A program made the translations under genes and the position numbers. The notes below the pieces were generated by a model, which saw nothing but the letters and a program-made list of their open reading frames with translations, was not told where the DNA came from and ran no database searches. A DNA stretch of 64,000 nt from a virus. The stretch covers positions 1 to 64,000 of the IMG/VR virus record IMGVR_UViG_3300028831_000378. The stretch is one strand, 5' to 3'. The number at the start of each line of letters is the position of its first letter. The stretch's first letter is position 1. Shown one piece after another: positions 5,263 to 64,000 of the stretch.

Positions 5263-5290
5263 GGGATCGCCGCGCAGCCGGGGGTACGAT
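5263..5290 (+). promoter_or_regulatory. late-type promoter, copy 1
   Basis: GGGATCGC at 5263-5270. ATC, then 16 nt, then TACGAT at 5285-5290. In-frame GTG at 5298 lies 7 nt downstream. Confidence 0.55.
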
Positions 5291-6071
5291 GGCGCGCGTG
5301 ACTGTCGTCCGGCTGGGAAACACGGCGCCGATGATGCAGGTGCCCAAGCGCGTCTCCGTGGAGGGCGTGTTGGAGTGGCAGTCGGTCCCGGCGCCGCATC
5401 TGGACGTGTCCGTGACGACGGTCGGGATGCGCGAGGGCTTCGACGACGAAGCGGACGTCGAGCTGGCGCTGTCGACGAACAACGATCGGATGCTCGACAT
5501 GATCGGCCGGCTGCTCGGCGACGAGCATCGCCGCTACGCGATCGGGGTCGCGGAGGTCGAGTCGATCATGGGGACGCACTCGGGCGCCGCGCCGGCGTGG
5601 GTCGCGGTCGACGACGATCCGGAGTTCGAGGCGGCGTTGGCGGAGCACTTCCGTTGCGCTCGTGGCGAGCCGATGGCGCTGCTGACGAACGCGGGCCGCG
5701 ATGCGTTGCACGCGCAGCATCTCTCGACGAGCACGCAGCCGGCGTCGATCAACTACATCGCTCTGTCGGCGAACGCGACGGCTCCGAGCGCGGCGAGCAC
5801 GACGCTGCCGGGCGAGATCACGACGGCTGGCGGCGGGCTGCTGCGCGCGCAGGCGACGTACGCGCACACGGCGGGCACGAACACGAGTACGCTGACGAAG
5901 ACGTTCACGGCGAACGGGTCGGACTCGCTGCCGGTGACGCTCGCGAAGATCGGGGTGCTGAACGCGTCCAGCTCGGGCACGCTCGGCTACGAGACGCTGC
6001 TGAACGCGACGGCGACGCTATCGGCGGTCGGTGACAGCGTGACGATCACGGAAACCGTCACGGCGGGCTAG
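5289..6071 (+). CDS. virion-associated protein with tail-collar-fibre-like C-terminal domain (putative)
   Basis: The C-terminal INYIALSANATAPS...TTLPGE...AKIGVLNASSSGTLGYE pattern resembles tail-collar fibre N-domains (by eye). The true start may be the leaderless GTG at 5298. Confidence 0.55.
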   Translation: MARVTVVRLGNTAPMMQVPKRVSVEGVLEWQSVPAPHLDVSVTTVGMREGFDDEADVELALSTNNDRMLDMIGRLLGDEHRRYAIGVAEVESIMGTHSGAAPAWVAVDDDPEFEAALAEHFRCARGEPMALLTNAGRDALHAQHLSTSTQPASINYIALSANATAPSAASTTLPGEITTAGGGLLRAQATYAHTAGTNTSTLTKTFTANGSDSLPVTLAKIGVLNASSSGTLGYETLLNATATLSAVGDSVTITETVTAG

Positions 6072-6076
6072 TCGTC

Positions 6077-6316
6077 GTGGCGCTGTCGGCGAGCGACGTA
6101 CGGGCGACGTGGCGGGCGCTGCTGGAGTCCGATCCGTCGCTGGGGAACGCGTTCACGAAGACGCAGATGGCGGCCGCGGTGACGGCGACGGATGAGTGGA
6201 TGGAGCGGATGGAGCCGACGTTCACGGCGGCGCTGCCGAAGGAGTTTCAGGCCGCGACGGTCAAGCAGCGCGCGCTGCTGCGAGCGCATGTCGCGATCCG
6301 GCGAGCCGGGATGTAG
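6077..6316 (+). CDS. hypothetical protein
   Basis: GTG 6077 lies 5 nt after the upstream TAG. Protein-like composition. Confidence 0.55.
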   Translation: MALSASDVRATWRALLESDPSLGNAFTKTQMAAAVTATDEWMERMEPTFTAALPKEFQAATVKQRALLRAHVAIRRAGM

Positions 6317-6319
6317 ACA

Positions 6320-6811
6320 GTGGCGTCCGGGAACACGCTCGGGATCCTGCTGCCGTTGGCGGCGGAGGCGCCGGCTACGAACTACGCGACGCTGAACGTT
6401 CGCAATCAGCATCCGATGCTGGAGTTCGATTCGGCGACGCAGGAAACGGCGATCTGGACGAGCGTTATGCCGCAGCACTACGCCGGCGGAAACATCACGG
6501 TCATCACGAAGTGGGCGGCGGTACCGACGACGGGGAATGTTGGGTGGGGCGCGACGTTCGAGCGGGTCGCGGACGCGGGGCAGGACATCGACGCCGATGG
6601 GTTCGCGACGGAGCAGATCGTGACGGCCGCGACGGTCGATGGCACGAGTGGGAACACGAAGACGACGAGCGTCACGTGCACGGCGGGGTCGACGGGCACC
6701 GATAGCGTCGCGGCGGGCGATCTCTTCCGGTTGCGGATCCGGCGTGACGTCGCGACGGACACGGCGGCCGGCGACGCGCAGCTACTCGCGGTCGAGTTGC
6801 GCGAGGCGTAG
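6320..6811 (+). CDS. hypothetical beta-rich (structural-like) protein
   Basis: GTG 6320 lies 3 nt after the upstream TAG. Thr/Ala/Gly-rich, typical of virion appendage proteins. Confidence 0.6.
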   Translation: MASGNTLGILLPLAAEAPATNYATLNVRNQHPMLEFDSATQETAIWTSVMPQHYAGGNITVITKWAAVPTTGNVGWGATFERVADAGQDIDADGFATEQIVTAATVDGTSGNTKTTSVTCTAGSTGTDSVAAGDLFRLRIRRDVATDTAAGDAQLLAVELREA

Positions 6812-6823
6812 GAGCGCAGCGCT

Positions 6824-9121
6824 GTGGCGCTGAGTTTTTCCGCCGGTGGCTCGGGCGATGTCATCGAGGCGGCGTCGGCGCCGGCGATCAGCGGCGCGTT
6901 CACGGTGGCGGCGTGGGCGCGGCCGCTCGCGTCGCTGAATAGCGGGACGATCCTGGGTGTTGGCGCGAACGCGTCGAACAACTACATCGCGCTAGCGATG
7001 CTCGATACGGGCCTGCCGTTCTTCGAGACGTCGCTGCCATCGGTCGATGCGAATGGGCCGGGAACGGCGTCGGCGGGCGTGTGGTGTCACGTCGCTGGGG
7101 TGCAAACGAGCACGACGAACCGTGTGTGCTATCTCGACGCTGTGGCGGGGACGGCGAATACGTCGTCGAGTAACCCGAGCGGGATGGATCGCGTCACGGT
7201 CGGGCAGCTCCGTCTGAATGGGTCGCTGGTGAGCGTCTGGAATGGGGACGCGGCGGAGTGCGCGATCTGGAGCGCGGCGCTTACGGTCGCGGAGTTGGCG
7301 GTGCTCGCGGCGGGGTTCTCGCCGCTGAAGGTGCGGCCGTCCGCGCTGGTGTTCTACGCGCCGCTGCTGGGACGCGCGACGGGGCCGGAGCTGGATCTCG
7401 TCGGCGGCCGGCCGCTGGTGTACGGCTCCGGTTTGGAGCCGTCTGCCTCGGGCACGCACCCACGGGTGCGCGGTCGGGCGCAGGCGGCGGCAGTCGTGCT
7501 CGTGCCGTCGACCACCGTGTCGCTGTCGCGGACGGGCGCGGACACGGTGGCTGTGTCGGATGCCGCGACGCGGGCGCTGGCGGATGCGCGCTCGGGCGCG
7601 GACAGCGTGTCGGCGGTGAGCGATGCGGCGGCTCGTGGGGCGCTCGGGCTCGCGCGCGCCGGCGCGGATTCGCCGGCGCTGTCGGATGCGGCGTTGCGGC
7701 TGTGGACGCCGGCGGGTCGCACGACGGCGGATAGCGCGGCCGCATCGGACGCGGCGACTCGTGCGGTGGCGGCGCCACGTGTGGGCGCGGACGCGGCGAG
7801 CGCGACGGACGCGGCGACGCGTGCGAAGACGGGGCCGCGAGGTGGAGCGGACAGCGCGAGCGTGTCGGACGCTGCGGCCCGTGGAGCGCTCTCTAAGGTC
7901 AGGGATGGCGCAGATGCCGTAGTGGTAGCGGACACGCCGGGGAGGGCTGTGGTGGCTGCGCGCGGCCCGCAGGACACGGTGATTGCGGGGGACGCCGCGG
8001 GCCGGCAGGTGGTGGAGGCGCGCGCGGCCGCGGATTCGGTGTCGTCGTCGGATGCGGCGGTCGGGCTGGTGGGGAAGGTTCGGACGAGCGCGGACAACTC
8101 GGGCGTGTCGGATGCGGCGACACGGGGTGCGGCGGGGCGCGCGCGGTCGAGCGCGGATGCGGTGGTGGTGACGGATGCCGCGGCGCCGCGTGTGACGTTC
8201 GTGCGGCAGGCGCTCGACACGGCGGTCTTCGCGGATGCGGCGACGGGCGCGCTGCTGCTCGCACGATCGGCGGCCGACGCGGCAACGGTCGGCGATGCCG
8301 GCGTGCGTTTGCTCGGCGAGGCGCGGGCGGGCTCGGATAGCGCGGCGGTGACGGATGCGGCGCAGCGCGGGCTGCTTGGGCTCGTGCGGGCGGTGTCGGA
8401 TGCCGCGGGCGTGTCGGACGCCGGCGTGGTGAGCAATCGTGCGCTGGTGCGCGGCGGCGCGGACGCGACGGGGGTGTCGGACGTCGCGCGGCGCACGGCG
8501 GCGATCTCGAAGGCGGCGCAGGACGCGTGGACGCCGGCGGATGCCGCAACGCGGCTGCTGGGCCAGCACGTCGCGGCGGCGGACACGGTGGCCGCGGCGG
8601 ATGCCGCGAACCGGCTGCTCGGCGTCGCGCGAGGTGCGGTTGACGCGAGCGCGTCGACAGACGCGGCGTCGGGCAGCGCCGGCGTGGCGCGCGCGGCCGC
8701 GGACGCGTGGGGCGTGTCGGACTTGCCGGTGGGCGCCGCGGCGTTCGCTCGGATGGCGGCGGACGTCGCGGCGGTCGTCGAGCACGCGAACGTGGGCGTA
8801 GCGCTCGTGCGCAGGGGCAGCGATGCACAGGCCGTCGCCGATGCGGCGTCGCGGGGTGCGATGCCGCGCGCTCGCGCGACGATCGACGTGATCGGGGTGT
8901 CCGACGTCGCGCGCCAGGTCGTGCTGCGGATGCTGTTCGCCGGCGACGTCGTGGTTGTGACGGACTCGGGTGTGGCAGTCGCGTTCGGGGAGGGCGTGCA
9001 GGTCGAGCTGCTGATCGACGTCGAGCGGTCGCTGATCGTGGAGGGGTATGTGGGCGCGTCGATCGGTACTGTCGGCGTGGTTCTACCGTCGACAGACGCC
9101 ACGGGAGAGATCACGGCGTGA
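6824..9121 (+). CDS. LamG/concanavalin-like lectin domain protein with long degenerate tandem repeats
   Basis: N-terminal LamG-like pattern (FTVAAWARP..., VWCHVAGV..., VCYLDAV..., WNGDAAECAIWSAALTVAEL). It is followed by about 25 repeats of about 20 aa. Confidence 0.75.
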   Translation: MALSFSAGGSGDVIEAASAPAISGAFTVAAWARPLASLNSGTILGVGANASNNYIALAMLDTGLPFFETSLPSVDANGPGTASAGVWCHVAGVQTSTTNRVCYLDAVAGTANTSSSNPSGMDRVTVGQLRLNGSLVSVWNGDAAECAIWSAALTVAELAVLAAGFSPLKVRPSALVFYAPLLGRATGPELDLVGGRPLVYGSGLEPSASGTHPRVRGRAQAAAVVLVPSTTVSLSRTGADTVAVSDAATRALADARSGADSVSAVSDAAARGALGLARAGADSPALSDAALRLWTPAGRTTADSAAASDAATRAVAAPRVGADAASATDAATRAKTGPRGGADSASVSDAAARGALSKVRDGADAVVVADTPGRAVVAARGPQDTVIAGDAAGRQVVEARAAADSVSSSDAAVGLVGKVRTSADNSGVSDAATRGAAGRARSSADAVVVTDAAAPRVTFVRQALDTAVFADAATGALLLARSAADAATVGDAGVRLLGEARAGSDSAAVTDAAQRGLLGLVRAVSDAAGVSDAGVVSNRALVRGGADATGVSDVARRTAAISKAAQDAWTPADAATRLLGQHVAAADTVAAADAANRLLGVARGAVDASASTDAASGSAGVARAAADAWGVSDLPVGAAAFARMAADVAAVVEHANVGVALVRRGSDAQAVADAASRGAMPRARATIDVIGVSDVARQVVLRMLFAGDVVVVTDSGVAVAFGEGVQVELLIDVERSLIVEGYVGASIGTVGVVLPSTDATGEITA
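7535..9030 (+). repeat. coding tandem repeats (about 57-66 bp period)
   Basis: Repeated core (G)AD(S/A)xxV(S/T)DAAxRxxxxxR, about 25 times, within CDS 6824-9121. Confidence 0.7.
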
Positions 9122-9426
9122 GCATCCCGAAGTTCATAGAGGGGGAGGGCGTCACGTTGTGGTTGACGTTCCGTGACCCGCGGACGCGTGCGCCGATGGA
9201 TCCGGAGGAGCCCGTGATCGTGCGTGTCGATCCGCCGGTGCAGGGCGCGTCGGTCCCGGCGACGCGGGTGCTGACGGCGGAGCGCGAGGAGTTGGGGCTG
9301 TACCGTGCGGTGACGCCGGCTGATCTGCCGGGCCGGTGGCTGGTGTACGGGATCTCGGGTGGCGCGCCGGCGGCACGTGGGGCGTGGGAGGGCGCATTCG
9401 AGGTACGCGCTTCGAGGATGCGGTGA
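9118..9426 (+). CDS. hypothetical small beta-rich protein
   Basis: GTG 9118 in a GTGA overlap with the upstream stop. Confidence 0.55.
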   Translation: MSIPKFIEGEGVTLWLTFRDPRTRAPMDPEEPVIVRVDPPVQGASVPATRVLTAEREELGLYRAVTPADLPGRWLVYGISGGAPAARGAWEGAFEVRASRMR

Positions 9427-9812
9427 TGCTCGCAACGCTCGATCTTGCGGCGCTGACGACGTTCACGGGTCCGGTTGTGGTGCTGGCCGGCGTCGTGTTT
9501 CTTGCGCTGCGCTACAACCGCGAGGAGACGGGCAAGATCGTTTCGCAGCAGGCAAGCGTGCTCGACGACATGAACTCCGTCTATGAGCGCTTGAAGGACG
9601 CGCTGTCGCGGGCGGAGAAGGAGCGTGATGCGGCGCAGCGGGAACGCGACGAGACGAAGGCGGAGCGCGATGCGTTGCGGAGCGAGGTCGCGGCGTTGCA
9701 TAGCGAAGTGGAAGCTGCGCGGCAGGCAAATGAGCGGCTGGCGGGGCAGGTTGCGCAACTCCGGGTAGAGCTGGCGGAGTACGAGCAGCGACGGCGAGGT
9801 GACAGCGTGTGA
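9426..9812 (+). CDS. membrane-anchored coiled-coil protein
   Basis: TGATG coupling. N-terminal TM segment (LAALTTFTGPVVVLAGVVFLAL), then a charged heptad-like ERDAAQRERDETKAERDALRSEV region. Confidence 0.6.
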   Translation: MLATLDLAALTTFTGPVVVLAGVVFLALRYNREETGKIVSQQASVLDDMNSVYERLKDALSRAEKERDAAQRERDETKAERDALRSEVAALHSEVEAARQANERLAGQVAQLRVELAEYEQRRRGDSV

Positions 9813-10570
9813 GCGAGGAGCAGAATCCGATAGAGGTGGTGGGGAAGACGCTCGACGTCGTGTGTCATCGGCTTGATCGGCAAGCGAGCGTCATTCGCCT
9901 GATTTTGACGCTGGGCGCTGTGACGTTCATGCTCGCGGGCACTTCGATCGTGATCAATGGCTGTCGGGCACAGGATGCGAACTCGACGGCGGAGTCGGCG
10001 GAGAAGCGCAGCTCGTCGAACTCGGTGACGCTGCGGTGTCTCACGGAGTCCAAGACGCGGAGCGCGGCGACGCGATGCCTGAACATTCAGGCGGCGAAGG
10101 AGGGGCGCGCGGGGCGCGCCGGAGCGGCTGGTGCGCAGGGCAAGCGGGGGGTGGCTGGTGTGCAGGGCGCGAAGGGCGACAAGGGCGATCGAGGTGCGAC
10201 GGGTGCGACGGGTGGCCGTGGGCCGCAGGGGTTGCCCGGTGGGCAGGGGCCGAAGGGCGACAAGGGCGACAAGGGCGATCCGGGCGATGACGCGGTGGCG
10301 CAGCAGCGGCCGGTGCGTCCACCTCCGAGTGAGCTACCGCCGCGCCCGGATCGTCCGGACAGGCAGCCGCCGGAGCGCGGGCCGCAGGGCGATCAGGGGC
10401 CGAAGGGCGACAAGGGAGATAAGGGCGACAAGGGAGATAGGGGAGAGCAGGGGCCGGCGGGGGAGGCGCCGATTGACGTCGAGACGGCTTGTCCGAATGG
10501 GCTGCTGGGTGGACTAACGCCGGGCATCGCGACGGACCCGGACGGCGATCGGCACTACACGTGCCCATAG
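9809..10570 (+). CDS. membrane-anchored collagen-like (G-X-Y) repeat protein
   Basis: GTGA overlap at the start. TM segment (LILTLGAVTFMLAGTSIVI). Two G-X-Y blocks (GRAGRAGAAGAQGKRG... and GPQGDQGPKGDKGDKGDKGDRGEQGPAG) flank a Pro-rich linker. Confidence 0.7.
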   Translation: MSEEQNPIEVVGKTLDVVCHRLDRQASVIRLILTLGAVTFMLAGTSIVINGCRAQDANSTAESAEKRSSSNSVTLRCLTESKTRSAATRCLNIQAAKEGRAGRAGAAGAQGKRGVAGVQGAKGDKGDRGATGATGGRGPQGLPGGQGPKGDKGDKGDPGDDAVAQQRPVRPPPSELPPRPDRPDRQPPERGPQGDQGPKGDKGDKGDKGDRGEQGPAGEAPIDVETACPNGLLGGLTPGIATDPDGDRHYTCP

Positions 10571-10590
10571 ATGCGGCCATAGAAGTGTCC

Positions 10591-10617
10591 ACGGAGGCAG
10601 ACTGCTCCGTCTAATCT
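10591..10617 (+). promoter_or_regulatory. terminase promoter (-10 TAATCT) with upstream hairpin
   Basis: ACGGAG/CTCCGT 6-bp hairpin at 10591-10610. TAATCT at 10612-10617 lies 7 nt before GTG 10625 (leaderless geometry). Confidence 0.45.
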
Positions 10618-10624
10618 GGCGGGC

Positions 10625-12532
10625 GTGGCTACTCGGGTACGGCCGCGGCGGGCGCGGCGGGAGGATGGATTCGACTTCGCGGCAGCGGTCGACGGCGAGT
10701 GGCAGCTCGGCGAGGAGGAACGCGCCGTCGAGCGTCGGTCGATGATGGAGTACGCGGAGCTGATGCCCGAGCCCGGCGTGGGCGCGCTGCGGTTCGAGGA
10801 CTTCCCGTTTCAGGTCGGGTGGTATGCCGACGAGGTAGCGGACGCCGAAGAGGTCGTGTTCGCGAAGGGCGCGCAGGTCGGCGCGAGCGGGATGGGGGTG
10901 CGGTGGTGCATCCGGCAGGTCGATCAGTTCGGCGACACGGGCCTGTACGTGATGCCGACAGACGAGGTGGTCGAGAAGTTCGGCGACGAGCGCGTCGAGC
11001 CCGCGATCGAGGAGAGCCCTTATCTCCAGTCGCGGATCCGGCCGAAGTGGGTGCGGAACAAGCATCTGAAGCGCATCGGCCGGGCGTTCCTGCATATGCG
11101 CGGCTCGAACTCGAAGGCCGGCGCGCAGTCCGTCGCGGCTCAGTTTCTCTTTCTCGACGAGCGCGACCTGCTCGATCAGTCGAACCTGCCGATGATCATG
11201 CGGCGCGTGTCGGGCGCCCGGCAGCTCGGGAAGACGCCGAAGGTTCGTCACGCCGGCTATCCGCTGATCCCGAACGACGGGATCGACCTGCTGTGGCAGC
11301 AGTCGGACATGCGCGTGTGGCACGTCGTCTGTGATCGCTGCGGCGACGAGCAGCCGATCACGTGGGAAGAGAACGTGCGGTGGACGACGCCGGGGTTTCA
11401 CGAGGGCGAGCGCGAGGGCCAGGAGCACGGCGACGCGTCGCTGCCGCTGCGGGTGATGCGGCCGGGCTCGGACGCGCACGACGATCGCAAGGCGATCGAC
11501 GCGGTGTGGCGGCAGTGCCGGTCGTGCGAGGCGTCGTTCGAGGACTCCGGGCCGGGCAAGCGCGACGGGGTGCTGCGCAAGGGCCGATGGATCGCGCAGC
11601 GGCCGGGCGCGTCGCTGATCGGCTTTCACGTGTGGCGCGGGATGGTGCCCGTGACGGATCTCGTCGAGATGGTGCGGGCGTCACGGTCGACGAAGGACAT
11701 CGAACGCGAGCTGTTCTCCGCGCTCGATCTCGGGCGCCCGTACGCGTCGGGCGAGTCGTCGCTGACCGATGACGTGCTGATGCGCGCGTGCTCGTTCGGG
11801 ATCAATCGCCTGGATGCGTACTACGGGCCGAACCCGACGACGATGGGTGTCGACGTCGCCGGCGAGCGTGACCTGAACGTGTGGATCGACGAGCAGCTAC
11901 CGGCGGAGATCGAGGGGGTACCGAATCCGCGGCAGGCGCTCTGGATCGGGCGGTGCGCGACGTTCGAGGAGGTCGTGCGGCTGATGGAGCTGTTCCGGGT
12001 GCACGTGTGCGCAATCGACTCGAACCCGGAGCGGCGGATGGCGAAGGCGCTGCGCGCGACGTTCCCGGGCCGTGTGGTGCTCGTCGAGTACGACCATAGG
12101 TGGCTGTCGGAGCCGCTGAAGTTCGAGGCCGATCCGGAGGGGATGCCGCTGAAGGTGCGGGTGAATCGGACGGACGCGATCGACGGGATGATGGATGCGA
12201 TTCGGCAGGTGCGCTCGCGGCCGTTGCGGACGCCGCCGGCCGGCTGGATGGCGCAGATGAAGAGTCTGCACCGGCGCACGATCCTGAACACGAAGGGGTT
12301 GCCGGAGCGCGAGTACGTCACGACGGGCACGGACGGCGACGACTATGGGCACGCGGCGGTGTACGCGCTCGTGGCGACGGAGTTGTGGCGGATGTTCATC
12401 CGGTCGCAGGCGCAACTCGCGCAGGCGCGCGGCCAGCATGTCCCGGACGAGGAGATGGGCTTTCGGCGGGTGCGGCTGTCGGACTATGGTTCGGCGGAGA
12501 GTTGGCGGCCGGGTCTTCGGGGCTACGAATGA
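10625..12532 (+). CDS. terminase large subunit (GpA-like)
   Basis: 635 aa. FPFQVGWYADE..VVFAKGAQVGASG (GpA-type ATPase N-terminus). Internal CDRCGDE...CRSCEAS zinc ribbon. C-terminal nuclease-size domain. Confidence 0.8.
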   Translation: MATRVRPRRARREDGFDFAAAVDGEWQLGEEERAVERRSMMEYAELMPEPGVGALRFEDFPFQVGWYADEVADAEEVVFAKGAQVGASGMGVRWCIRQVDQFGDTGLYVMPTDEVVEKFGDERVEPAIEESPYLQSRIRPKWVRNKHLKRIGRAFLHMRGSNSKAGAQSVAAQFLFLDERDLLDQSNLPMIMRRVSGARQLGKTPKVRHAGYPLIPNDGIDLLWQQSDMRVWHVVCDRCGDEQPITWEENVRWTTPGFHEGEREGQEHGDASLPLRVMRPGSDAHDDRKAIDAVWRQCRSCEASFEDSGPGKRDGVLRKGRWIAQRPGASLIGFHVWRGMVPVTDLVEMVRASRSTKDIERELFSALDLGRPYASGESSLTDDVLMRACSFGINRLDAYYGPNPTTMGVDVAGERDLNVWIDEQLPAEIEGVPNPRQALWIGRCATFEEVVRLMELFRVHVCAIDSNPERRMAKALRATFPGRVVLVEYDHRWLSEPLKFEADPEGMPLKVRVNRTDAIDGMMDAIRQVRSRPLRTPPAGWMAQMKSLHRRTILNTKGLPEREYVTTGTDGDDYGHAAVYALVATELWRMFIRSQAQLAQARGQHVPDEEMGFRRVRLSDYGSAESWRPGLRGYE

Positions 12533-12542
12533 GGAGGGCACG

Positions 12543-12713
12543 GTGAAGCGCTCGAATTGGGCGGAGTGTCCGGCGTGCGGCGAGGAGTGGTGGATGTACG
12601 CCGGGACGGCGCCGATCACGACGAAGGCGGGTAGCAACGGCTGTCGTGTGTGTCGCTCGCGACCGTGGCGGCGGCTGGCGCCGTGGGTGCGTTGGATAGG
12701 CGGCCGAGGATGA
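12543..12713 (+). CDS. small zinc-ribbon protein
   Basis: GAGGAGGG RBS then GTG 12543. Contains CPACGEE...CRVC. Stop in ATGA overlap with the next gene. Confidence 0.45.
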   Translation: MKRSNWAECPACGEEWWMYAGTAPITTKAGSNGCRVCRSRPWRRLAPWVRWIGGRG

Positions 12714-13048
12714 CAGTGCCGCGGAGGCCGGGGCAGCGCGCGACGAGTCGTGATCGAGAGGAGTACGCACGAGCGACGGAGGCCGCGCGCGAAACTCGCG
12801 AGCGTGTCGCCGGCGAGGTCGCGGATACGATTGCGGGACAGGTCCGCGAGCTGCTGATCGAGGGTGACATCATGGGCGGCCGCGCGCTCGTGGCGATGCG
12901 GTTGCGGCAGGTGACGGTCGCGGAGGGCCGAGCCGACGAGCCGGCGATCCGGGCGGCGTGGATGGATGTGTGCGTCGCGGCCGCGGGATGCGTCGCGGCA
13001 CTGGACTACCGGCCGCCTTCGGGGTTGAATGGGGGTCGTGGCGACTGA
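12710..13048 (+). CDS. hypothetical protein
   Basis: ATG 12710 (ATGA overlap). Internal start of ORF 12650-13048. Confidence 0.5.
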   Translation: MTVPRRPGQRATSRDREEYARATEAARETRERVAGEVADTIAGQVRELLIEGDIMGGRALVAMRLRQVTVAEGRADEPAIRAAWMDVCVAAAGCVAALDYRPPSGLNGGRGD

Positions 13049-13250
13049 GGAGGTAGCGGAGCCGGTGGCGTGGGGGAAGCCGCAGGCGGCGAGGTGGGGC
13101 ACGCGCGAGCAGGGCGGCGTCGTCGCGCCGACGCTCGGCGAGCGGTGGGCGTGGCGGGGGTGGTGGCGCGCGGAGCGTGTGGAGGGCGAGGCCGACGAGT
13201 TCGGTGATGCTATGTCGGCGCTGTGGCACTTTCTCGCGCGGGGCGAATGA
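13029..13250 (+). CDS. hypothetical Trp-rich protein
   Basis: ORF-track frame. Overlaps the previous gene by 20 nt. Confidence 0.4.
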   Translation: MGVVATEEVAEPVAWGKPQAARWGTREQGGVVAPTLGERWAWRGWWRAERVEGEADEFGDAMSALWHFLARGE

Positions 13251-13254
13251 CTGC

Positions 13255-13278
13255 CCCGCCGGCGTTCCCGCCGGCGGG
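13255..13278 (+). terminator. stem-loop after stop 13248-13250
   Basis: 10-bp GC stem CCCGCCGGCG/CGCCGGCGGG with a TTCC loop. Weak T tail (cTTgggg). Confidence 0.45.
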
Positions 13279-14753: not shown

Positions 14754-14797
14754 GATCATCGGGTTATCCTCTCGGGCTGACCCGAGTTCCGAGGAGG
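14754..14797 (+). promoter_or_regulatory. early-type promoter/operator plus leader, copy 2
   Basis: Dyad GATCAT-cgg-GTTATC at 14754-14768. TATCCT at 14765-14770. CTCGGG at 14771-14776 is inverted relative to gACCCGAGT at 14779-14787. GAGGAGG at 14791-14797 and ATG at 14803. Confidence 0.55.
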
Positions 14798-17929: not shown

Positions 17930-18150
17930 TCGAGGTGCAGATACCGGCGAGTGTGGAGCCGGCCGCGCTCGATCAGATCAAGGCCATCGCGAAGGCGCAT
18001 CCGGGCGAGCACGAGTTGCGGATCGTGCTCGTGAGTTCGAGGAGGATCGCCGGCGCGATGGTGCTCGGGCCGGAGTGGCGTTGCGATGGCGGCGCGCTGT
18101 GCGTGGCGCTGCTGGCGGAGTTCGGCGGGGTCCGGTTGCAGACGGGGTGA
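17926..18150 (+). CDS. hypothetical protein
   Basis: ATGA overlap. Its stop lies inside the next promoter dyad. Confidence 0.55.
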   Translation: MIEVQIPASVEPAALDQIKAIAKAHPGEHELRIVLVSSRRIAGAMVLGPEWRCDGGALCVALLAEFGGVRLQTG

Positions 18151-18197
18151 TAACTGCGCTATCGTGCGGCGTCTACCCGAGTTTGCGACATTGGAGG
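18149..18197 (+). promoter_or_regulatory. early-type promoter/operator plus leader, copy 3
   Basis: TTGCAG at 18136-18141 (-35-like, 18-nt spacer). Dyad GATAAC-tgc-GCTATC at 18149-18163. TATCGT at 18160-18165. TACCCGAGT at 18174-18182. GGAGG at 18193-18197 and ATG at 18202. Confidence 0.55.
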
Positions 18198-26795: not shown

Positions 26796-26798
26796 GTC

Positions 26799-46920: not shown

Positions 46921-46946
46921 GCTCCCGGTCAACGGGGACGGGCTAA

Positions 46947-46982: not shown

Positions 46983-46991
46983 CCGTGTGTG

Positions 46992-48525: not shown

Positions 48526-48549
48526 GTAGCCTTCGAGGGTGTCGATGAA

Positions 48550-49344: not shown

Positions 49345-49356
49345 GAGGAGTTGGCG

Positions 49357-49578: not shown

Positions 49579-49839
49579 ATGGGCGTGCTGCGCGGCGATC
49601 GTCCGGATCTGACGCCGGCGCAGCTCGCCGGCGCCGTGCCGGTGCTCGCGAACCTCGCGAACGCGTTCGGGGTCTTCCATCTGAGCGTGCAGCAGACCGA
49701 CTCGCTTCAGCAGACGATCCTCTACGCATCGACGCTCGTCGTCGCGGACGCGGCGGTGCGCTTCGCCCGCAACGCGAAGGACGCGAAGGTGGAGGCGGCG
49801 GGGCTCGCTGTCGCTGCTCGGGTGCCACCGGCGACGTAG
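49579..49839 (+). CDS. hypothetical protein, possible holin or membrane-associated lysis protein
   Basis: ATG directly after TAG. Hydrophobic stretches AGAVPVLANLANAFGVF and ILYASTLVVADAAV. Assigned mainly by position in the lysis cassette. Confidence 0.45.
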   Translation: MGVLRGDRPDLTPAQLAGAVPVLANLANAFGVFHLSVQQTDSLQQTILYASTLVVADAAVRFARNAKDAKVEAAGLAVAARVPPAT

Positions 49840-49871: not shown

Positions 49872-49971
49872 TACGGCCGAGCGATTGCCTCTTCGTGCGA
49901 CTCGGGTAAAGTGGCCGGAGCCACCGCGAAGCCGCACACAAGGGCCGTCCCTCGGGGCGGCCTTTGTTGTT
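49872..49971 (+). ncRNA. candidate ~100-nt small RNA carrying the anti-leader box ACTCGGGTA
   Basis: TATCAT at 49860-49865, then 6 nt, then TAC(GG)CCGAG at 49872-49881. Three stem-loops: TAC..CCGAG/CTCGGGTA (49872-49908), GTGGC-cgga-GCCAC (49911-49924), and the terminator. No RBS or credible ORF. Confidence 0.4.
49941..49971 (+). terminator. intrinsic terminator
   Basis: aGGGCCG-tccctcgggg-CGGCCtt stem followed by TTTGTTGTT. Confidence 0.65.
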
Positions 49972-50027
49972 CCCGGCCGATCAGCGCGTTATCTTCCCGG
50001 GGGTCCGACGTACCCGAGTCGAAGGAG
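49967..50027 (+). promoter_or_regulatory. early-type promoter/operator plus leader, copy 6
   Basis: TTGTTC at 49967-49972 (17-nt spacer). Dyad GATCAG-cgc-GTTATC at 49979-49993. TATCTT at 49990-49995. TACCCGAGT at 50011-50019. GAAGGAG at 50021-50027 and ATG at 50028. Confidence 0.55.
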
Positions 50028-58354: not shown

Positions 58355-59896
58355 CTACGCGGCGGCCTGCTGCGGCGCCGCGTACTCCTCCGCCAGCGCC
58401 GCGATCTCGTCGTCTGAGACGTACACAGCTCGGACGGCGACGATCCCGCGTTTCTTGTCGTTCCACGCGAACCCGCGGCCCGGCTGATCGCGCAGGATCC
58501 GGTCGCACCGGATGCCGCTCGCCGCGGCGCCCTGCCAGAACATCATGTCCGTGTACTGCGCGGACAGCAGCCGCAGCGCGATCCGGTCCGGGATCTCGTC
58601 GCGCATGTCGACGACTTCCTTCCGCGGATTCTGGAGCGCGCCTAGCAGCGTGATCCCGACAGCGCGGCCCTTGTTCACGAGGAGCGTCGTCGCCATCTTG
58701 CACTCGTCGGCGATGTCCTTCGCGGCCTTCGCCTTCGACTCCGGGACCATGATCGACGCGAACTCGTCGATCATCAGCAGGATCAGCGGCTCGTCGATCG
58801 TGGGGACGTGCTGGCGCGTGGACTCCTTGTACTTCTGAGTGCGCGCGTTCATCTCCGTCACGAGGTCGGCGAGCATGTCGCGCATGTCCTTCGGCGTGCT
58901 GTCGCAGTAGCGCGTGTAGAGCGGGAAGCCGCGATACAGCTCCATCCCGCCCTTCGGGTCGATCGCCCATACCTGCACGAGGCCGTCGCGGATCGCGGGC
59001 GCCAGTCCCTTCAGGACCGACCACAGGATCGAGCCCTTCCCCGATCCGGTGAGGCCGGCGACGAGGATGTGCGAGCCGTGCAGCTTCAGCGTCCAGCGTT
59101 CGCCCTGCTCGGTCCGACCGACCGGGATGGCGCCGAAGTCAACGTCTGCGGTCGACTCCGGTACGGGGATCGCGGGTAGCGACTCGCTGAGGACGTCCTT
59201 TGTCGCGAACTCCATCACGATCTGGCCGGGGATGCGCTGGCCGCCGGCGTGCTTTCCCCACGCGAGCCGGCGCCGGCCCACGCTGTCGAGGATCCACATG
59301 AGCCGCAGCAGGCGGCCGGGGTCGCTGTAGCGCGGGTAGACGCGGCAGGACTGAGCGCCGAAGGCTTCAGCGAACGCGTCGACCCGGCGTTCGTACATCT
59401 CGACGGTGTGCGCCGCGAGCATCTTGACCTGCAACGTGTGACCGAACGGGCCGACGATCACCTTCCGAATCTTCGGCACCTTGTCGCGCCGGTGCTCCAA
59501 GGGAACGGTGAGCATGTTCTCCTGCATCTCTTCGTGCCACTTACGGGCGTAGACGCGCCGGGCGACCCACCACGGCCGTAGCCACGAACCGATCCAGCGT
59601 TCCCACGAGCCCCACCGTGCGATCCATTGCGCCCATCGCCGGCGCGGCCGGCGGAAGAAGCCGGAGCACCACGCGAACGTCCACCACGCGGAGACGAAGA
59701 CCACGACGTCGATCCCGAGCCCGATCGCAGTGCGCGGTCCGAAGAGCACGACGAGCGCGCCGGCGAGCACGATCGCGAGGGCGCGCTGCGGGAACCACCA
59801 CGCGTAGAGCACGACGAGCACGATCGTCTGCACGAGCCAGATGACGGGAACGACGATCCAGTCGCCGATACTCACGAGCGTCCCCTCCGAAGCCAC
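58355..59896 (-). CDS. FtsK/SpoIIIE-family (TraB-like) DNA translocase ATPase with N-terminal TM segments
   Basis: Walker A GLTGSGKGS and Walker B LLMIDEF. Three to four N-terminal TM helices. GTG start. Converges on rusA with only a 2-nt gap. Confidence 0.8.
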   Translation of the reverse strand: MASEGTLVSIGDWIVVPVIWLVQTIVLVVLYAWWFPQRALAIVLAGALVVLFGPRTAIGLGIDVVVFVSAWWTFAWCSGFFRRPRRRWAQWIARWGSWERWIGSWLRPWWVARRVYARKWHEEMQENMLTVPLEHRRDKVPKIRKVIVGPFGHTLQVKMLAAHTVEMYERRVDAFAEAFGAQSCRVYPRYSDPGRLLRLMWILDSVGRRRLAWGKHAGGQRIPGQIVMEFATKDVLSESLPAIPVPESTADVDFGAIPVGRTEQGERWTLKLHGSHILVAGLTGSGKGSILWSVLKGLAPAIRDGLVQVWAIDPKGGMELYRGFPLYTRYCDSTPKDMRDMLADLVTEMNARTQKYKESTRQHVPTIDEPLILLMIDEFASIMVPESKAKAAKDIADECKMATTLLVNKGRAVGITLLGALQNPRKEVVDMRDEIPDRIALRLLSAQYTDMMFWQGAAASGIRCDRILRDQPGRGFAWNDKKRGIVAVRAVYVSDDEIAALAEEYAAPQQAAA

Positions 59897-60306
59897 GCAC
59901 GGTAGGTCGGGCCGATCTTCGCGCCGTAGGACGCGAGTTCGCGCTCAGCGTGGTTAGCGCGGTCGGCGGCCCACTTGGCGCCGTCCGCAGCGATCTTCGC
60001 CGCGTCGGCGGCGTGCTCGGCGGCGTTGGCGTAGCGCTGCGCGTCGCGGGTGGCTTCGCGTCGCTCGTCGGCGTAGGAGTACGGATCGACGACGGCGGCG
60101 CTGTCGCACTTGTGCGCGGCCTGACGCGCGTGAGCCGCCGCCTGATCGGCTTCAGCTACGCATCGTGCGACGTCGCCTTCGAGATCAGCATCGACGGAGA
60201 CGGTGGACGTGATCGAGCGTGCGCGGGCCGCTTCACGGTCGGCGCGTTGCACTGCCGCTCGGGCACGGCGACGCGCTTCGACTCGTTCCTGCGACCCGCG
60301 CGCCAT
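59872..60306 (-). CDS. hypothetical helical Ala-rich protein
   Basis: ORF-track frame. Its 3' end overlaps the FtsK-like start by 25 nt. Confidence 0.55.
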   Translation of the reverse strand: MARGSQERVEARRRARAAVQRADREAARARSITSTVSVDADLEGDVARCVAEADQAAAHARQAAHKCDSAAVVDPYSYADERREATRDAQRYANAAEHAADAAKIAADGAKWAADRANHAERELASYGAKIGPTYRAWLRRGRS

Positions 60307-60309
60307 TCG

Positions 60310-60831
60310 TCAAGGCGCAGCGACGAGCCGGTAGCGCTGGCCGTTGCAGTAGGGGCGGAGCTGTCCGCCCATGCTTGCGCCCTGCGCGCCGTTCGGGCGA
60401 GCGGGGACGTACCGGATGTCCGCCGCGTTGGTCGAGCGGCCCTCCGCGGGCGGGTACTCGTCGCGCGCCTTCCCGGGCCGCGTCTTCGTGACGCCGGCGA
60501 GCCGAAACGCGGCCTGTCGGCGCTGGTCTTCGCCGGTGTCGTTCTTCACGAGCACGACGGGCCAGCGCTTGCCGTCATCGACGATCGTCTTCCCGTCGCT
60601 GAGCGTGTTGCGGCCGTGGCGAGCATCGACGATGTGACGCCAGTTGTCCGGGTACTTCGACACGGACACACGAATCGGTATGACGCGATCGGGTTCGCAT
60701 CGTGAGTAGCCCTCCGCGTGAGCGGCCGCCATCTTCGCACGGGGACTCTCGAACTGCGCCCAATACCACGAGTAGGCGAACGAGCCGGCGAAGAAGAGGA
60801 CGACGAGGCGCGCGCGCAGAGAGAGCCCCAT
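60310..60831 (-). CDS. NucA/NucB-like DNase with N-terminal membrane anchor or signal
   Basis: GGGAGGG RBS then ATG 60831. TM segment LRARLVVLFFAGSFAYSWYW. ARDEYPPAEGRS...IRYVPARPNGAQGASMG matches the DNase_NucA_NucB DEYPfA...N..qG core by eye. Confidence 0.6.
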   Translation of the reverse strand: MGLSLRARLVVLFFAGSFAYSWYWAQFESPRAKMAAAHAEGYSRCEPDRVIPIRVSVSKYPDNWRHIVDARHGRNTLSDGKTIVDDGKRWPVVLVKNDTGEDQRRQAAFRLAGVTKTRPGKARDEYPPAEGRSTNAADIRYVPARPNGAQGASMGGQLRPYCNGQRYRLVAAP

Positions 60832-61241
60832 CAGCGCGACCCTCCCGGCGACGAGCGCTGCGGACGGTCCTGCCGGCCGTCGAGATGCGGACCCACGTTG
60901 AACTCCGAGCCACGCTGCCACGGAGGCGTCGTCTGCGGCGAAGGCGCCCGTCCCGCGAACGCGAGAAACCAGATGGTCACGACGACGGTAGCCGCGATCG
61001 AGATGTAGAACGCGACGAGAGCGGGCCAGCTCCGACGCCGCTCAGCAGGGGGAGCCGAAGGCACCTGCTGCTCGTAGTAGCCCGGAGGCGGCTCGTGACG
61101 AACGACCACCTCGTGAATCACACGCTCAGAGGGCGCCACAGAGCCACTGGAGCGCCTGGGAGCAACCGGGCGGGCCACCACGTCGCCTTCGACGATCTCA
61201 CCGTGGAGAACGGGCCTGCGCTGCGGCAGCCGAGACTTCAC
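60831..61241 (-). CDS. membrane protein (single TM)
   Basis: GTG start. WPALVAFYISIAATVVVTIWFLAF. TGATG coupling to the nuclease gene. Confidence 0.55.
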   Translation of the reverse strand: MKSRLPQRRPVLHGEIVEGDVVARPVAPRRSSGSVAPSERVIHEVVVRHEPPPGYYEQQVPSAPPAERRRSWPALVAFYISIAATVVVTIWFLAFAGRAPSPQTTPPWQRGSEFNVGPHLDGRQDRPQRSSPGGSR

Positions 61242-61350
61242 GATGACCCGCCGATCTGAGAGGTGCTGCGGGGCCAGCGTCCGCCGCGGCGGCTAGGCGG
61301 GCGAAGCCCTGAGCCTAGCCGAGGCCGCCGTTCGGCGTGACGCGTCGGGT

Positions 61351-61471
61351 GGTTTGTGGGGGTTTGGGACTCGGGCATGGTTCCTCCGGTGTTGGTGGTT
61401 TGGAGGTTACGGGGTGGGGACGTCGTGTTGCCGGCGCGTGGGGTCGCGTCGGTCGGTTTGTGCGGGGTTTG
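61351..61471. repeat. GGTTTG iteron-like repeats in a non-coding region
   Basis: GGTTTG at 61351, 61361, 61397, 61455 and 61466. Two pairs are spaced 10-11 bp apart. The region is G/T-rich, unlike the flanking DNA. Confidence 0.5.
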
Positions 61472-61585
61472 TGTGCCCGGGTAGGGTGGGCTGTGGACGG
61501 GGAGCCGCTGTGGCGCTAGCACGCAGAGGGGGCGGCCACGGCGGGACGCGGCGAGCCTGCTAGGGGGCGGCGAACGCGTGTTCGG

Positions 61586-61930
61586 CTAGCGGAGGAGGTG
61601 GGGGAGTTCGGGGACGATGTGGGCGAGGAGGAGGACGGCTGTGATGCCGAGGGTGAGGGCGAGGAGGGGTTCGAGGGTGGCTTGGAGGGGTGTGGCGCGG
61701 CGGTAGCGGCGGCTGAAGGGGTGGCGGCGTTTCGCGGGTCGGCGTTTCGCGGGTGCCTTGGGCTTTGGCTTCGCGGCGGGTTTCGGGGCTGGCCGCGGCG
61801 CCGGCGTCACGACGATGGTTGGCGGCGGGTCGGGTGTGTCGCCGGTGAGGACGAGGATGGTCGTCTCGGGCTCGCCGAAGATGTCGGCGGCGGTGGGGGT
61901 GGCGGGTGGCTGTGGTGGGCGGCGGCGCAT
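61586..61930 (-). CDS. Pro/Lys-rich protein with C-terminal TM anchor
   Basis: TAATG coupling with the upstream gene. C-terminal LLALTLGITAVLLLAHIV. Confidence 0.5.
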   Translation of the reverse strand: MRRRPPQPPATPTAADIFGEPETTILVLTGDTPDPPPTIVVTPAPRPAPKPAAKPKPKAPAKRRPAKRRHPFSRRYRRATPLQATLEPLLALTLGITAVLLLAHIVPELPHLLR

Positions 61931-62196
61931 TAGAGGAGGGTGGGGCGGTTGCAGTGGGTGTGGTTGGCGGCGAACATCGCGGGGATGTCGGCGGCGAAGA
62001 CGGTGGTGTGGCGGCCGCGGCGTTCGGTGGTGCCGCAGCCGTGGCAGGTGAGTTGCCAGCCGTAGCGGTAGCCGTCTGTGCGGGTGATGAGTGCGGCGGT
62101 GACGGTGGGGCTGCCGGGGACGGGGCGGGGGGTGCCGATGGTGTGGCGGCCGAGGAGGGTGTTTTCGATTGCGTGGTCGGGGGTCGGCATGATCAT
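61930..62196 (-). CDS. hypothetical protein (88 aa)
   Basis: Only the C-terminal part of ORF 61930-62805 looks protein-like (MIMPTPDHAIENTLLGRH...CHGCG...). GGAG lies upstream of ATG 62190/62196. Confidence 0.45.
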   Translation of the reverse strand: MIMPTPDHAIENTLLGRHTIGTPRPVPGSPTVTAALITRTDGYRYGWQLTCHGCGTTERRGRHTTVFAADIPAMFAANHTHCNRPTLL

Positions 62197-62483
62197 CGGC
62201 TCCGGAGTGCCCATGCGGTGAGGGCGAGGCCGGTGGGGGTGCGGACGGTGCCGGTCGGCTGATCTTCGATGTCGAGGTAGCCGGGGATGCCTACGGCGGT
62301 GAGGTTGGCGATGATGGTGGGGCGGGTGCGGAGGTCGGGTCGTCCGGGGCGGTAGTCGGCGGCGTGGGCGGCGCGGCGTGCGGCGGCTTGTGCGGTGCGG
62401 TGGGCGTGGCGCCAGTAGCGGCGTTGGCGGCGGAGGGTGTCGCCGGTGGTGGTGGGGCGTGGGGCGAAGAGGTTGCGGAGCAT
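62193..62483 (-). CDS. hypothetical protein (96 aa)
   Basis: ORF-track frame. Stop overlaps the next start. Confidence 0.45.
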   Translation of the reverse strand: MLRNLFAPRPTTTGDTLRRQRRYWRHAHRTAQAAARRAAHAADYRPGRPDLRTRPTIIANLTAVGIPGYLDIEDQPTGTVRTPTGLALTAWALRSR

Positions 62484-62498
62484 GGTCGCGGGGTCCGG

Positions 62499-62912
62499 TT
62501 AGCTGCGCTGGTGGGCGCCGGGGTTTGCCACGGGGTCTTCGTCGTACAGGGCGACGAGGCCGGAGCCGGCGAGGTCGGCGCGCCAGTAGCCGTTTGGCAG
62601 CAGCTCGACGCGGCGTGCGGTGGTGGGGCGGCCGCGGTAGCGGACTGTGCAGTGGGTGTAGGTGGTGGGCGCTGGCGTGTCGTCGAGCTGGAGGCGCATG
62701 TCGAGCTGGTAGAGCTGCTGTGCGAGGAGGTCGCGAAGTTGTGTCTGCGCCTGGGCGAACTGCTCGTCGGTCATGCGGTAGCCGTTGGCGTGCGCGACGC
62801 GGCACAGCAGGGACTCGGCGGCGTCGTCGGCGAGGCTGGCGGAGTTGGCGTCGCGTTGGGCGACGGGAATCGAGAGCGGCATGGTGATCTCCGTGATGGG
62901 TGACTCGGGCAT
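62499..62912 (-). CDS. hypothetical protein, first gene of reverse cassette (leaderless start candidate)
   Basis: ATG 62912 lies 6 nt after a minus-strand TATCAT (62919-62924) and begins ATGCCCGAGT. An alternative is ATG 62882, preceded by GGAG. Confidence 0.55.
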   Translation of the reverse strand: MPESPITEITMPLSIPVAQRDANSASLADDAAESLLCRVAHANGYRMTDEQFAQAQTQLRDLLAQQLYQLDMRLQLDDTPAPTTYTHCTVRYRGRPTTARRVELLPNGYWRADLAGSGLVALYDEDPVANPGAHQRS

Positions 62913-62918
62913 AGCCCT

Positions 62919-62937
62919 ATGATAACGGAGTTATCGC
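62919..62937. promoter_or_regulatory. divergent control region with perfect palindrome GATAAC-gga-GTTATC
   Basis: Palindrome at 62921-62935. Minus-strand -10 TATCAT at 62919-62924 and plus-strand TATCGC at 62932-37. Confidence 0.55.
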
Positions 62938-63038
62938 TGCGTAGCAAGGGTTTCGAGGTGGATTCGGGGACGGTTTCGGGTGCTTTGGGGGTCGCGGTTA
63001 GCCTGTCGATGGACCCTGATTTGAGGAGGCGAAGGTGT

Positions 63039-63386
63039 ATGGCTGATCCCGTTGTGCCGCCTGCCCGTCCGGTGTTGCCGGAGCGTCCGGCGGCGAAGGT
63101 GCCGGAGTTGCCGTGGGCGACGCGGAAGGCGCTCGCTGGGCAGTGGCCGGAGTTGGAGGAGACGGTGAGCGCGGGTATCGCGTGGGCTCCGGCGGAAGCG
63201 GAGTGGCAGGCGTTGCGCGCGGTGGCGTGGGTGCAGGCGAAGGCCGACGCGGTGTTCGAGGTCGCGCCGGCGAAGATCGCGGAGGGTCGGGCGTGGCTGG
63301 ATCAGCGGCTCGGCGCGGCGTGGGTGGGCGTGAAGGCGTGGGTGCGGAAGTACCTGGGCCTGAAGGCGGAGAAGCCGGCGAAGTAG
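63039..63386 (+). CDS. hypothetical protein
   Basis: GAGGAGG RBS then ATG 63039. The upstream part of ORF 62919 spans the operator. Confidence 0.55.
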   Translation: MADPVVPPARPVLPERPAAKVPELPWATRKALAGQWPELEETVSAGIAWAPAEAEWQALRAVAWVQAKADAVFEVAPAKIAEGRAWLDQRLGAAWVGVKAWVRKYLGLKAEKPAK

Positions 63387-63410
63387 TTCGCGGCCGGGAC
63401 GTTCGAGCGG

Positions 63411-63438
63411 GGTATCGGCTGCGGGCGGGCCGTACCCT
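63411..63438 (+). promoter_or_regulatory. late-type promoter, copy 5 (head operon)
   Basis: GGTATCGG at 63411-63418. ATC, then 16 nt, then TACCCT at 63433-63438. GTG 63446 lies 7 nt downstream. Confidence 0.55.
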
Positions 63439-63445
63439 CTCGGGC

Positions 63446-64000
63446 GTGGACGGCGACGAGAACGCGGCGCTGACGTTCGACGAGATCCGGCTGTTCGGGC
63501 CGGTCGTGGAGTCGGTCGTGTGGACTCCGGCGTTCATCGCGGAGCGCCGCGCGCCGATCGCGGTGCAGGCGGGCCGGCCGAAGCTGGGGCCGGTCTTCAA
63601 CTCGGAGGGCGTCGGGAAGGCCGTGATGATCCGGCCGTGCGTGTCGCGGGGGAAGCGGATTCGGGGGCTGCCGCCGATCTACACGCCGAAGATGCTGGAG
63701 GCGAACGCGGGCGTGTTCGCGGGCTGGCCGATGTATCTCGATCACGTGCCGGCGCAGCTCGCGGAGACGGCGGCGAAGCGAGGGCGTTCGGTGAAGGAGT
63801 TGGGCGGGCAGGTCTTGACGCCGTATTGGGATCGCGACTTCACGCAGGAGGGCGACGCGGACTTCGGGTATCAGCAGGGCGGCGCGCTCGCGGAGATTTG
63901 GGCGACGCCGTTTCTGCGGAGCCTCGTCGGCGAGAACCCGAACCTGCTGCACACGAGCATCGCGGCGTGGCCGACGTCGGGTAAGCCGGGGACGGCGCCG
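63446..64000 (+). CDS. head-module protein, possibly prohead protease/scaffold (3' end outside window)
   Basis: Frame is open from GTG 63446 to the window edge, so it is absent from the ORF track. WPMYLDHVP...RSVKELGGQVL resembles Mu gpI-type protease/scaffold N-termini (weak). Confidence 0.5.
   Translation, partial: MDGDENAALTFDEIRLFGPVVESVVWTPAFIAERRAPIAVQAGRPKLGPVFNSEGVGKAVMIRPCVSRGKRIRGLPPIYTPKMLEANAGVFAGWPMYLDHVPAQLAETAAKRGRSVKELGGQVLTPYWDRDFTQEGDADFGYQQGGALAEIWATPFLRSLVGENPNLLHTSIAAWPTSGKPGTAP

Follow-up and report, generated by a model that had tools for sequence, protein, structure and literature searches.

Promoters of leaderless mRNAs in mycobacteria usually possess little or no conserved −35 box. 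In the Thermus phage P23-45 the host RNA polymerase, modified by gp39/gp76, is used throughout, the later promoter classes have an architecture of their own that is free of the normal −35 contact, and many middle and late transcripts are leaderless. The middle promoters of phage T4 carry the MotA box, a 9-bp element centred near −30. There, the AsiA/MotA system switches the host RNA polymerase to a later class of genes (PMC7403470). Here we describe a promoter-like element, named class A, which consists of a GGKATC hexamer, a spacer of 16 nucleotides (nt) and a TAnnnT box, and which occurs six times in 64,000 nt of phage DNA (IMG/VR record IMGVR_UViG_3300028831_000378, positions 1 to 64,000; hereafter the window). 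The copies are labelled W1 to W5 and the 30992 site (Table 1). We propose, with moderate confidence, that the six sites form one promoter class which drives the operons for virion structure, packaging and lysis, that its mRNAs are leaderless, and that the hexamer is read by a phage-specified factor.

Class A resembles the leaderless promoters of Actinomycetota in its TAnnnT box with invariant T, A and final T, in the start codon 6–9 nt downstream and in the exclusive use of ATG and GTG. It differs from them by a hexamer that is near-invariant within a genome, by the rigid 16-nt distance and by serving one functional class of genes. The closest working analogy may be T4 AsiA/MotA, in that a phage would switch the host polymerase to a later gene class. 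However, T4 middle mRNAs have leaders, the class A box lies at the normal −35 distance and differs from the MotA box in sequence and position, and no match to the MotA/AsiA family was found among the open reading frames (ORFs) of the window, with about 14 kb of the genome lying outside it. The later promoters of P23-45 have an extended −10 element (TGn) and no upstream box, whereas class A shows a strongly conserved hexamer and no TG: the positions before TAnnnT are mostly C or G, with no conserved T-G. The canonical arrangement TTGACA-N16-18-TATAAT is equally absent, as the upstream box is GGKATC or, in a sister clade, GGTTTS, and a consensus scan found no canonical promoter at the class A sites.

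Searching the window for GGKATCG-N15-TANNNT gave five matches (W1 to W5), all on the plus strand, against 0.05 expected from dinucleotide-preserving shuffles, and none of 100 shuffles reached five. Matches with one mismatch were at chance level; one of them, at 9045, was considered as a seventh site and dismissed as a chance match. When the seventh base of this pattern was relaxed, a sixth perfect site appeared, the 30992 site. The original prediction had listed five copies. Their coordinates and the 16 nt between ATC and TAnnnT in every copy proved correct when the sequence was checked, and the start codons lie 7, 8, 9, 6 and 7 nt past the −10 box at W1 to W5, within the range of 6–9 nt that had been given. 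The copy number is raised to six, and a gap of N13 stated in the title of the prediction was a miscount, since 15 nt follow GGKATCG (16 after ATC). The observation of a repeated motif is confirmed and extended.

To look at conservation, DNA of relatives was taken around homologues of the sheath, baseplate-J, terminase and portal genes (loci are given L numbers below), and the motif was seen in about 20 related genomes. All 56 distinct matches to the strict pattern GG[TG][AT]T[CG]-N16-TAnnnT in 787 kb of these family loci lay on the coding strand, with none on the opposite one. The same pattern had two sites on the coding strand and one on the other in 694 kb of distant relatives with equal GC content, mostly contigs of 100–130 kb. 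A second test was not conditioned on the −10 box. Among 1082 coding-strand occurrences of the upstream hexamer in the related genomes, TA stood at spacer 16 in 62, compared with about 12 for any other spacer or for the opposite strand, which is a fivefold enrichment, and 56 of the 62 also had the final T of TAnnnT. With enrichment at spacer 16 alone and the final T kept in 56 of 62 cases, the 16-nt spacing is rigid, and the three defining letters of TAnnnT are practically invariant. Conservation is also seen for a G that stands two positions ahead of the hexamer, for another G at about −21, for a GG pair at −17/−16 and for a C at −8. Motif scans of IMG/VR returned contigs of the family only, plus single chance matches in unrelated, mostly low-GC contigs; no unrelated IMG/VR phage contig carried multiple copies.

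The search of related genomes that had been suggested as a check on the prediction found the motif at positions orthologous to W2, W3, W4 and W5 and at W1-like positions. W3, in front of the operon with the YqzN-like and sheath genes, is kept in 13 aligned orthologous regions. Invariant non-coding columns of this alignment occur only in the hexamer (G and T) and in the −10 box (T, A and T); the upstream flank cannot be aligned. Orthologues of W4 stand about 550 nt past the baseplate-J gene in six loci from at least five contigs (L053, L074, L078, L073, L081 and L080), and the one in L053 carries an identical TAGACT. The W2 orthologue (L172-9428) also reads GGGATC, is followed by the same MATL N-terminus and precedes a homologue of 26045–26548 and the portal gene. 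A W1-like site is present in L093 (8903) and L094 (6390), after a homologue of 4897–5154 and upstream of the terminase gene. The 30992 site is orthologous to L001-998 and L172-15129, with a near-identical upstream flank (ggcggYggcgtaGGGATC). Finally, W5 orthologues precede a homologous gene of 475–498 amino acids in L001, L011, L026, L051 and L188.

This head-module gene contains a class A promoter about 780 nt inside it in L001 (4157–4184), L011 (1071), L026 (2223), L051 (2608), L008 (3768) and L188 (869). In the window, the corresponding copy is expected near 64.2 kb, just past the window end. In five genomes the internal copy opens an in-frame nested ORF, and in L001, L011, L026 and L051, the four checked for this, the nested ORF has 228–256 amino acids and shares the stop codon of the gene. 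The arrangement resembles the nested scaffold of lambda C/Nu3; here an internal leaderless promoter would make the product.

Leaderless expression is suggested by the position and type of the start codons. In the family loci, the start lies 6–9 nt past the −10 box at 50 of 54 distinct sites that precede an ORF. At these 54 sites we counted 34 ATG, 20 GTG and no TTG, with TTG allowed in the search. In mycobacteria a 5′-terminal ATG or GTG is necessary and sufficient for leaderless translation and TTG is ineffective (PMC4633059), a rule that the ATG/GTG-only starts match. The TAG with which the −10 box of W3 and of W4 begins serves as the in-frame stop, so that no earlier start is possible at these two sites. 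The N-termini of orthologues also begin at the proposed codons (MADET, MAET and MANET at W3, MATL at W2). The claims that each start is the first in frame and that no Shine-Dalgarno sequence intervenes stand strictly for W3 and W4 only; W1 has an extra in-frame ATG at 5289 within the −10 box, and W2 has in-frame starts further upstream and a GGAGG that ends 14 nt before the ATG. Shine-Dalgarno duplex energies were uninformative, being confounded by G-rich promoter spacers and rough start calls. In its geometry, the sequence agrees with what had been predicted, namely promoter-like elements with a TAnnnT box, a fixed non-canonical hexamer and a leaderless or near-leaderless mRNA; the box is of primary-sigma type, and the mRNA would start at the ATG or GTG or within about 3 nt of it. 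The interpretation as promoters of leaderless mRNAs thus appears well supported.

A different interpretation is that the sites are not promoters but conserved sequences of another kind that happen to stand before genes, whether module boundaries, recombination sites or a translation signal. The head module that starts with a site does sit elsewhere in the window and L005 than in L001, L008, L172 and L173, and L005 has an extra copy after a homing-endonuclease insertion, both of which would suit a boundary sequence. We nevertheless judge this explanation very improbable: the conserved letters are precisely the T, A and final T of a −10 box together with an upstream box whose distance is constant and −35-like, the bases between and around these boxes drift, and strand, start-codon distance and the restriction to ATG and GTG fit transcription followed by leaderless translation and do not fit recombination.

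The hexamer varies between lineages. Clade I, to which GGTATC and GGGATC belong, is accompanied by a sister clade, clade II, with GGTTTC, GGTTTG or GGTTAC, and every site within one genome bears the hexamer variant of its lineage. The choice between GGTATC and GGGATC is mostly kept at orthologous sites when the window is compared with a 77.8-kb relative, W2, W3, W4, W5 and the 30992 site being in agreement; W1 is the exception, with GGGATC versus GGTATC in L093. Primary sigma factors vary very little in their region 4.2. The concerted change of the hexamer at four to seven sites per genome therefore points to one common reader that evolves faster than expected for this region. Together with the restriction of the motif to family contigs in IMG/VR, it leads us to favour a phage-specified factor. 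The TAnnnT box with its kept T, A and final T carries the signature expected for region 2 of a primary-type sigma.

The variant of clade II is also what could speak for an alternative sigma factor of the host, either SigB/SigF-like (group 3) or of the extracytoplasmic function (ECF) type, which the phage would exploit for its structural genes. SigB/SigF promoters of Streptomyces and Bacillus follow GTTT-N12-14-GGGTAT. The (G)GTTTC/G of clade II resembles their GTTT −35 box, and from GTTTCN to the three bases before TA there are 12 nt, inside the range of 12–14 nt (PMC8346170). W1 and L001-998 belong to the few sites that read GGGTAC at the −10 place, and an ECF-like C and G ahead of TA are present in roughly half of the sites (30 and 29 of 56). 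We consider such a factor unlikely, however. In SigB-type promoters the GGG before TA is almost invariant (PMC8346170), whereas of 56 class A sites only 17, 10 and 29 have a G at the respective positions, and the invariant final T of TAnnnT is typical of primary rather than SigB or ECF promoters. ECF promoters carry AAC in the −35 box (GGAAC or GTAAC) and have a −10 box that begins with CGT. The hexamer of the window, GGKATC, is neither GTTT nor GGAAC, and no AAC occurs in the window hexamers. We also tried GGGTAT in GGGTATCGG as a SigB-type −10 box and rejected it: half of the six sites have GGGATC, and W3 to W5, which do bear GGGTAT, lack an upstream GTTT.

The window contains a second promoter family, which we call class B. 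Its form is GATCAN-N3-GTTATCnT, followed after 8–17 nt by TACCCGAGT, a GGAG Shine-Dalgarno sequence and the start codon. The core GATMA-N4-GYTATC was found at seven sites in the window compared with 0.01 expected; the site at 62921 consists of the palindrome alone, without the TACCCGAGT element. In L172, L173 and L005 class B shows a perfect palindrome, GATAAC-N3-GTTATC. The palindrome looks like an operator that overlaps a G-n-TATCnT −10 box. This box is extended −10-like, and about half of the class B sites have TTGnnn at −35 (17–18 nt), so that class B resembles a promoter of primary-sigma type whose mRNA has a leader. Class B precedes RecT, the exonuclease gene and small non-structural genes, while class A precedes fibre, packaging, portal, PG-binding, tail, fibre/lysis and head genes. 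Since the two classes differ in their boxes, in the leader and in the genes served, the genome uses two promoter architectures. The right half-site of class B, GTTATC, is one base off the class A hexamer GGTATC.

According to the proposed mechanism, RNA polymerase would start at the ATG or GTG or up to about 3 nt before it, and the mRNA would be translated in the mycobacterial way, with no Shine-Dalgarno sequence. Lying at about −34 to −29, the hexamer would replace the normal −35 box and be contacted by something other than region 4 of the standard sigma-A. The most likely reader would be a phage-specified factor expressed from class B promoters; it could be a sigma factor of divergent sequence or else an activator by which region 4 is retargeted. 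Its production from class B promoters would make the class A genes 'late', a timing that can reasonably be inferred from gene function only.

Several points weigh against the proposed explanation. No sigma factor (Sigma70_r2, r4), WhiB-like, MotA/AsiA-like or other activator family was found among the ORFs of the window in Pfam and PHROGs searches, for which small ORFs were concatenated; the window leaves out about 14 kb of the genome. L182, a distant relative, has two apparently early promoters with leaders that carry GGTAAC or GGTAAG at the same 16-nt spacing, and GGTnnC could for this reason be a −35 variant determined by the host. The GGAGG before the ATG of W2 would make read-through translation possible there, and with gaps of 7–9 nt between −10 box and start some transcripts would have leaders of 1–3 nt. 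In addition, the search patterns were derived from the sites themselves and not from blind motif discovery, which is offset by the strand and spacing controls.

The primary-type −10 box, the promoters of L182 and the lack of a sigma factor or activator in the window would all agree with ordinary, possibly constitutive promoters used by the host primary sigma alone, GGTWTC being the −35 preference of a poorly studied host lineage, with no phage factor and no switch. Such an explanation is not likely in our view. Class B in the same genome lacks GGKATC at −35, and about half of its sites have TTGnnn at 17–18 nt instead; hexamer position 4 (A or T) shifts in concert between the clades; and multiple copies occur in no unrelated phage contig of IMG/VR.

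Sigma-like proteins encoded by the phage itself are known from SPO1 (gp28, gp33/34) and T4 (gp55). No PHROG of the transcription category matched the ORFs of the window, and divergent phage sigma factors can escape Pfam and PHROGs searches. The only hints of DNA binding come from a zinc-finger protein (3828–4106) and a protein similar to mIHF (21258–21590), neither of which has a known link to the motif. The class B operon just upstream of W1 ends with genes for two small proteins of zinc-finger or zinc-ribbon type, 3828–4106 and 4492–4701, one of which matches Pfam Phage_zn_bind_8. By position both are candidates for a late-gene regulator, with nothing to tie them to the motif. BLAST comparison of clade II early regions with the window found almost no shared non-structural genes, which makes phylogenetic profiling for the factor impossible. 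Literature searches for the motif or for a matching actinophage late promoter returned nothing specific. As a broader and more tentative proposal, this uncultured actinophage family of about 75–78 kb may encode its own factor, a divergent sigma or a protein that retargets region 4, which reads GGKATC and switches the host RNA polymerase to leaderless structural operons. The 28-bp element would then be a portable cassette that also makes a nested scaffold and lets modules move or be re-promoted after insertions.

The putative transcription units of the window are listed in Table 1. Scans for promoters and terminators of the E. coli type did no better than chance in DNA with 71% GC, and we used a custom hairpin scan instead. 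GC-rich hairpins at 13255, 22056, 46938–46986, 49938 and 54446 delimit units, and the sequence directly upstream of class A sites holds a stop codon or a hairpin resembling a terminator. The unit that starts at W1 probably takes in the terminase gene and three small genes and ends at the 13255 hairpin; no class A or class B site and no strong hairpin was found in it before 13255. For unit 2, we infer that the 30992 promoter reinforces expression of the PG-binding protein. The sites do head structural modules, as had been claimed, whereas the further statement that they cover all virion genes and nothing else was too strong, and the portal/head-morphogenesis label for the W2 unit is documented only in part. 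The terminase gene was said to have a different promoter of its own, and this held: a TAnnnT without the hexamer stands 7–8 nt before the conserved (M/V)ATR start of terminase in the window, in L093 (about 9985–10003) and in L094 (about 9984–10003). This −10-only, leaderless-type element is a predicted third promoter type.

Table 1. Promoters, putative transcription units, hairpins and selected genes in the 64,000-nt window.
Feature	Position	Strand	Description
Class A promoter W1	5263–5290	+	GGGATC 5263–5268; −10 box TACGAT 5285–5290; proposed leaderless start GTG 5298
Class A promoter W2	26009–26036	+	GGGATC; −10 box TACGCT 26031–26036; start ATG 26045
Class A promoter, 30992 site	30992–31019	+	GGGATCC; −10 box TACGCT 31014–31019; start GTG 31029 (PG-binding protein, 500 amino acids)
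Class A promoter W3	33791–33818	+	GGTATC; −10 box TAGCCT 33813–33818; start ATG 33828
Class A promoter W4	46992–47019	+	GGTATC; −10 box TAGACT 47014–47019; start GTG 47026
Class A promoter W5	63411–63438	+	GGTATC; −10 box TACCCT 63433–63438; start GTG 63446
Terminase −10-only leaderless-type promoter (predicted)	10612–10617	+	TAATCT, 7 nt, GTG 10625
Class B sites	569–583, 14754–14768, 18149–18163, 22096–22110, 32541–32555, 49979–49993, 62921–62935		
Putative unit 1	5298–13250	+	LamG-domain protein, collagen-like fibre, terminase large subunit, three small genes (gene calls, Pfam, PHROGs)
Terminator-like GC-rich hairpin closing unit 1	13255–13278	+	−22.6 kcal/mol; intergenic
Putative unit 2	26045–32531	+	167-amino-acid protein, 84-amino-acid protein, portal, 533-amino-acid protein, small genes
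Putative unit 3, tail module	33828–46920	+	YqzN-like protein, sheath 34091–35569, tube, tape measure 37421–41704, baseplate J 44842–46368
Terminator-like hairpin between units 3 and 4	46938–46986	+	−43 kcal/mol for 46921–46995; immediately upstream of W4
Putative unit 4	47026–49839	+	Fibre-like protein, NlpC/P60 protein, two small proteins; hairpin 49938–49967 downstream
Start of putative unit 5, head module	63446–64000	+	Homologue of the 475–498-amino-acid gene that precedes the capsid gene in relatives; gene leaves the window
Terminase gene, GpA-type	10625–12532	+	
Portal gene	26799–28814	+	
FtsK/SpoIIIE-like gene	58355–59896	−	Only clear minus-strand gene

Between the W2 and W3 units lies a two-gene class B cassette (32594–33789) with a YdjM-like gene (32594–33280) and a second gene (33277–33789). 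In most relatives compared (L001, L008, L172 and L173) the head module, with a scaffold-like gene, capsid and connectors, is flanked by the PG-binding gene and the sheath operon. The window and L005 have the class B cassette of the YdjM-like gene and a gene of 170 amino acids in this slot, and their head module lies elsewhere, headed by a class A promoter of its own. Modules bounded by promoters appear to have moved. L005, the closest long relative, also has a gene for a LAGLIDADG homing endonuclease inserted after the tube gene (4681–5180), and an extra class A promoter directly follows it, as if restoring the expression of the downstream tail genes.

The window has 71% GC and a strong positive GC skew, and nearly all of its genes are on the plus strand. 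Other genes encode RecT, a PD-(D/E)XK exonuclease, a DnaC-like loader and RusA, as well as NlpC/P60, PG-binding, collagen-like and LamG-domain fibre proteins. Within 58355–63400, the FtsK/SpoIIIE-like gene is followed by a G-rich, poorly coding stretch of about 3 kb, which could be a regulatory or origin region; no convincing or informative repeats were found at 59.9–63.1 kb. The window contains no tRNA and no Rfam family. Neither its DNA nor its portal protein had a match among GenBank phages, and its terminase is at most 24% identical to that of any isolate. Exact-peptide searches of IMG/VR with single proteins gave nothing useful, and no exact record of the sheath protein was found. The relatives are metagenomic only, several of them contigs of 75–78 kb, and the window probably represents about four fifths of one contractile-tailed phage genome of about 78 kb.

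The host probably belongs to Actinomycetota. The prediction had been framed for this phylum, and a phage-encoded homologue of the actinobacterial nucleoid protein mIHF (mycobacteria) or sIHF (Streptomyces) (21258–21590; PDB 6TOB, E = 3e-11; also 4ITQ and Pfam H2TH_5) supports the framing. This protein is about 60% identical in clade I relatives, is better conserved than terminase in L094 and L173, and had no match in GenBank phages. Terminase homologues occur in metagenome-assembled genomes (MAGs) labelled Conexibacter and Solirubrobacteraceae, and MAG binning is weak evidence of a host. The genome collection yielded a single MAG contig of phage size, which gives no prophage or host context. 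Another contig, from a Conexibacter sp. MAG (L187, JAOPZG010000254.1; 9.7 kb, 71.7% GC), has a terminase 60% identical to that of the window and encodes a tyrosine integrase and a serine recombinase. The contig, in which GGTATCG... and GATAAGCGAGTTATC motifs occur, could be a temperate relative, and it hints at a host in Solirubrobacterales.

Class-specific phage promoters are already known, and class A is of moderate interest mainly for the polymerase-redirecting factor that it implies in an uncultured actinophage family. From sequence alone, the motif offers a means of dividing the genes of an uncultured and widespread family of soil phages into two transcription classes and of fixing the true start codons of the genes that lead the operons. 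It predicts a factor that would redirect actinobacterial RNA polymerase, and the concerted difference of the hexamer between the clades offers a covariation handle on this factor once full genomes are assembled. The compact 45-bp element is a potential portable promoter for high-GC Actinomycetota. If our interpretation holds, leaderless expression can carry the most highly expressed genes of a phage.

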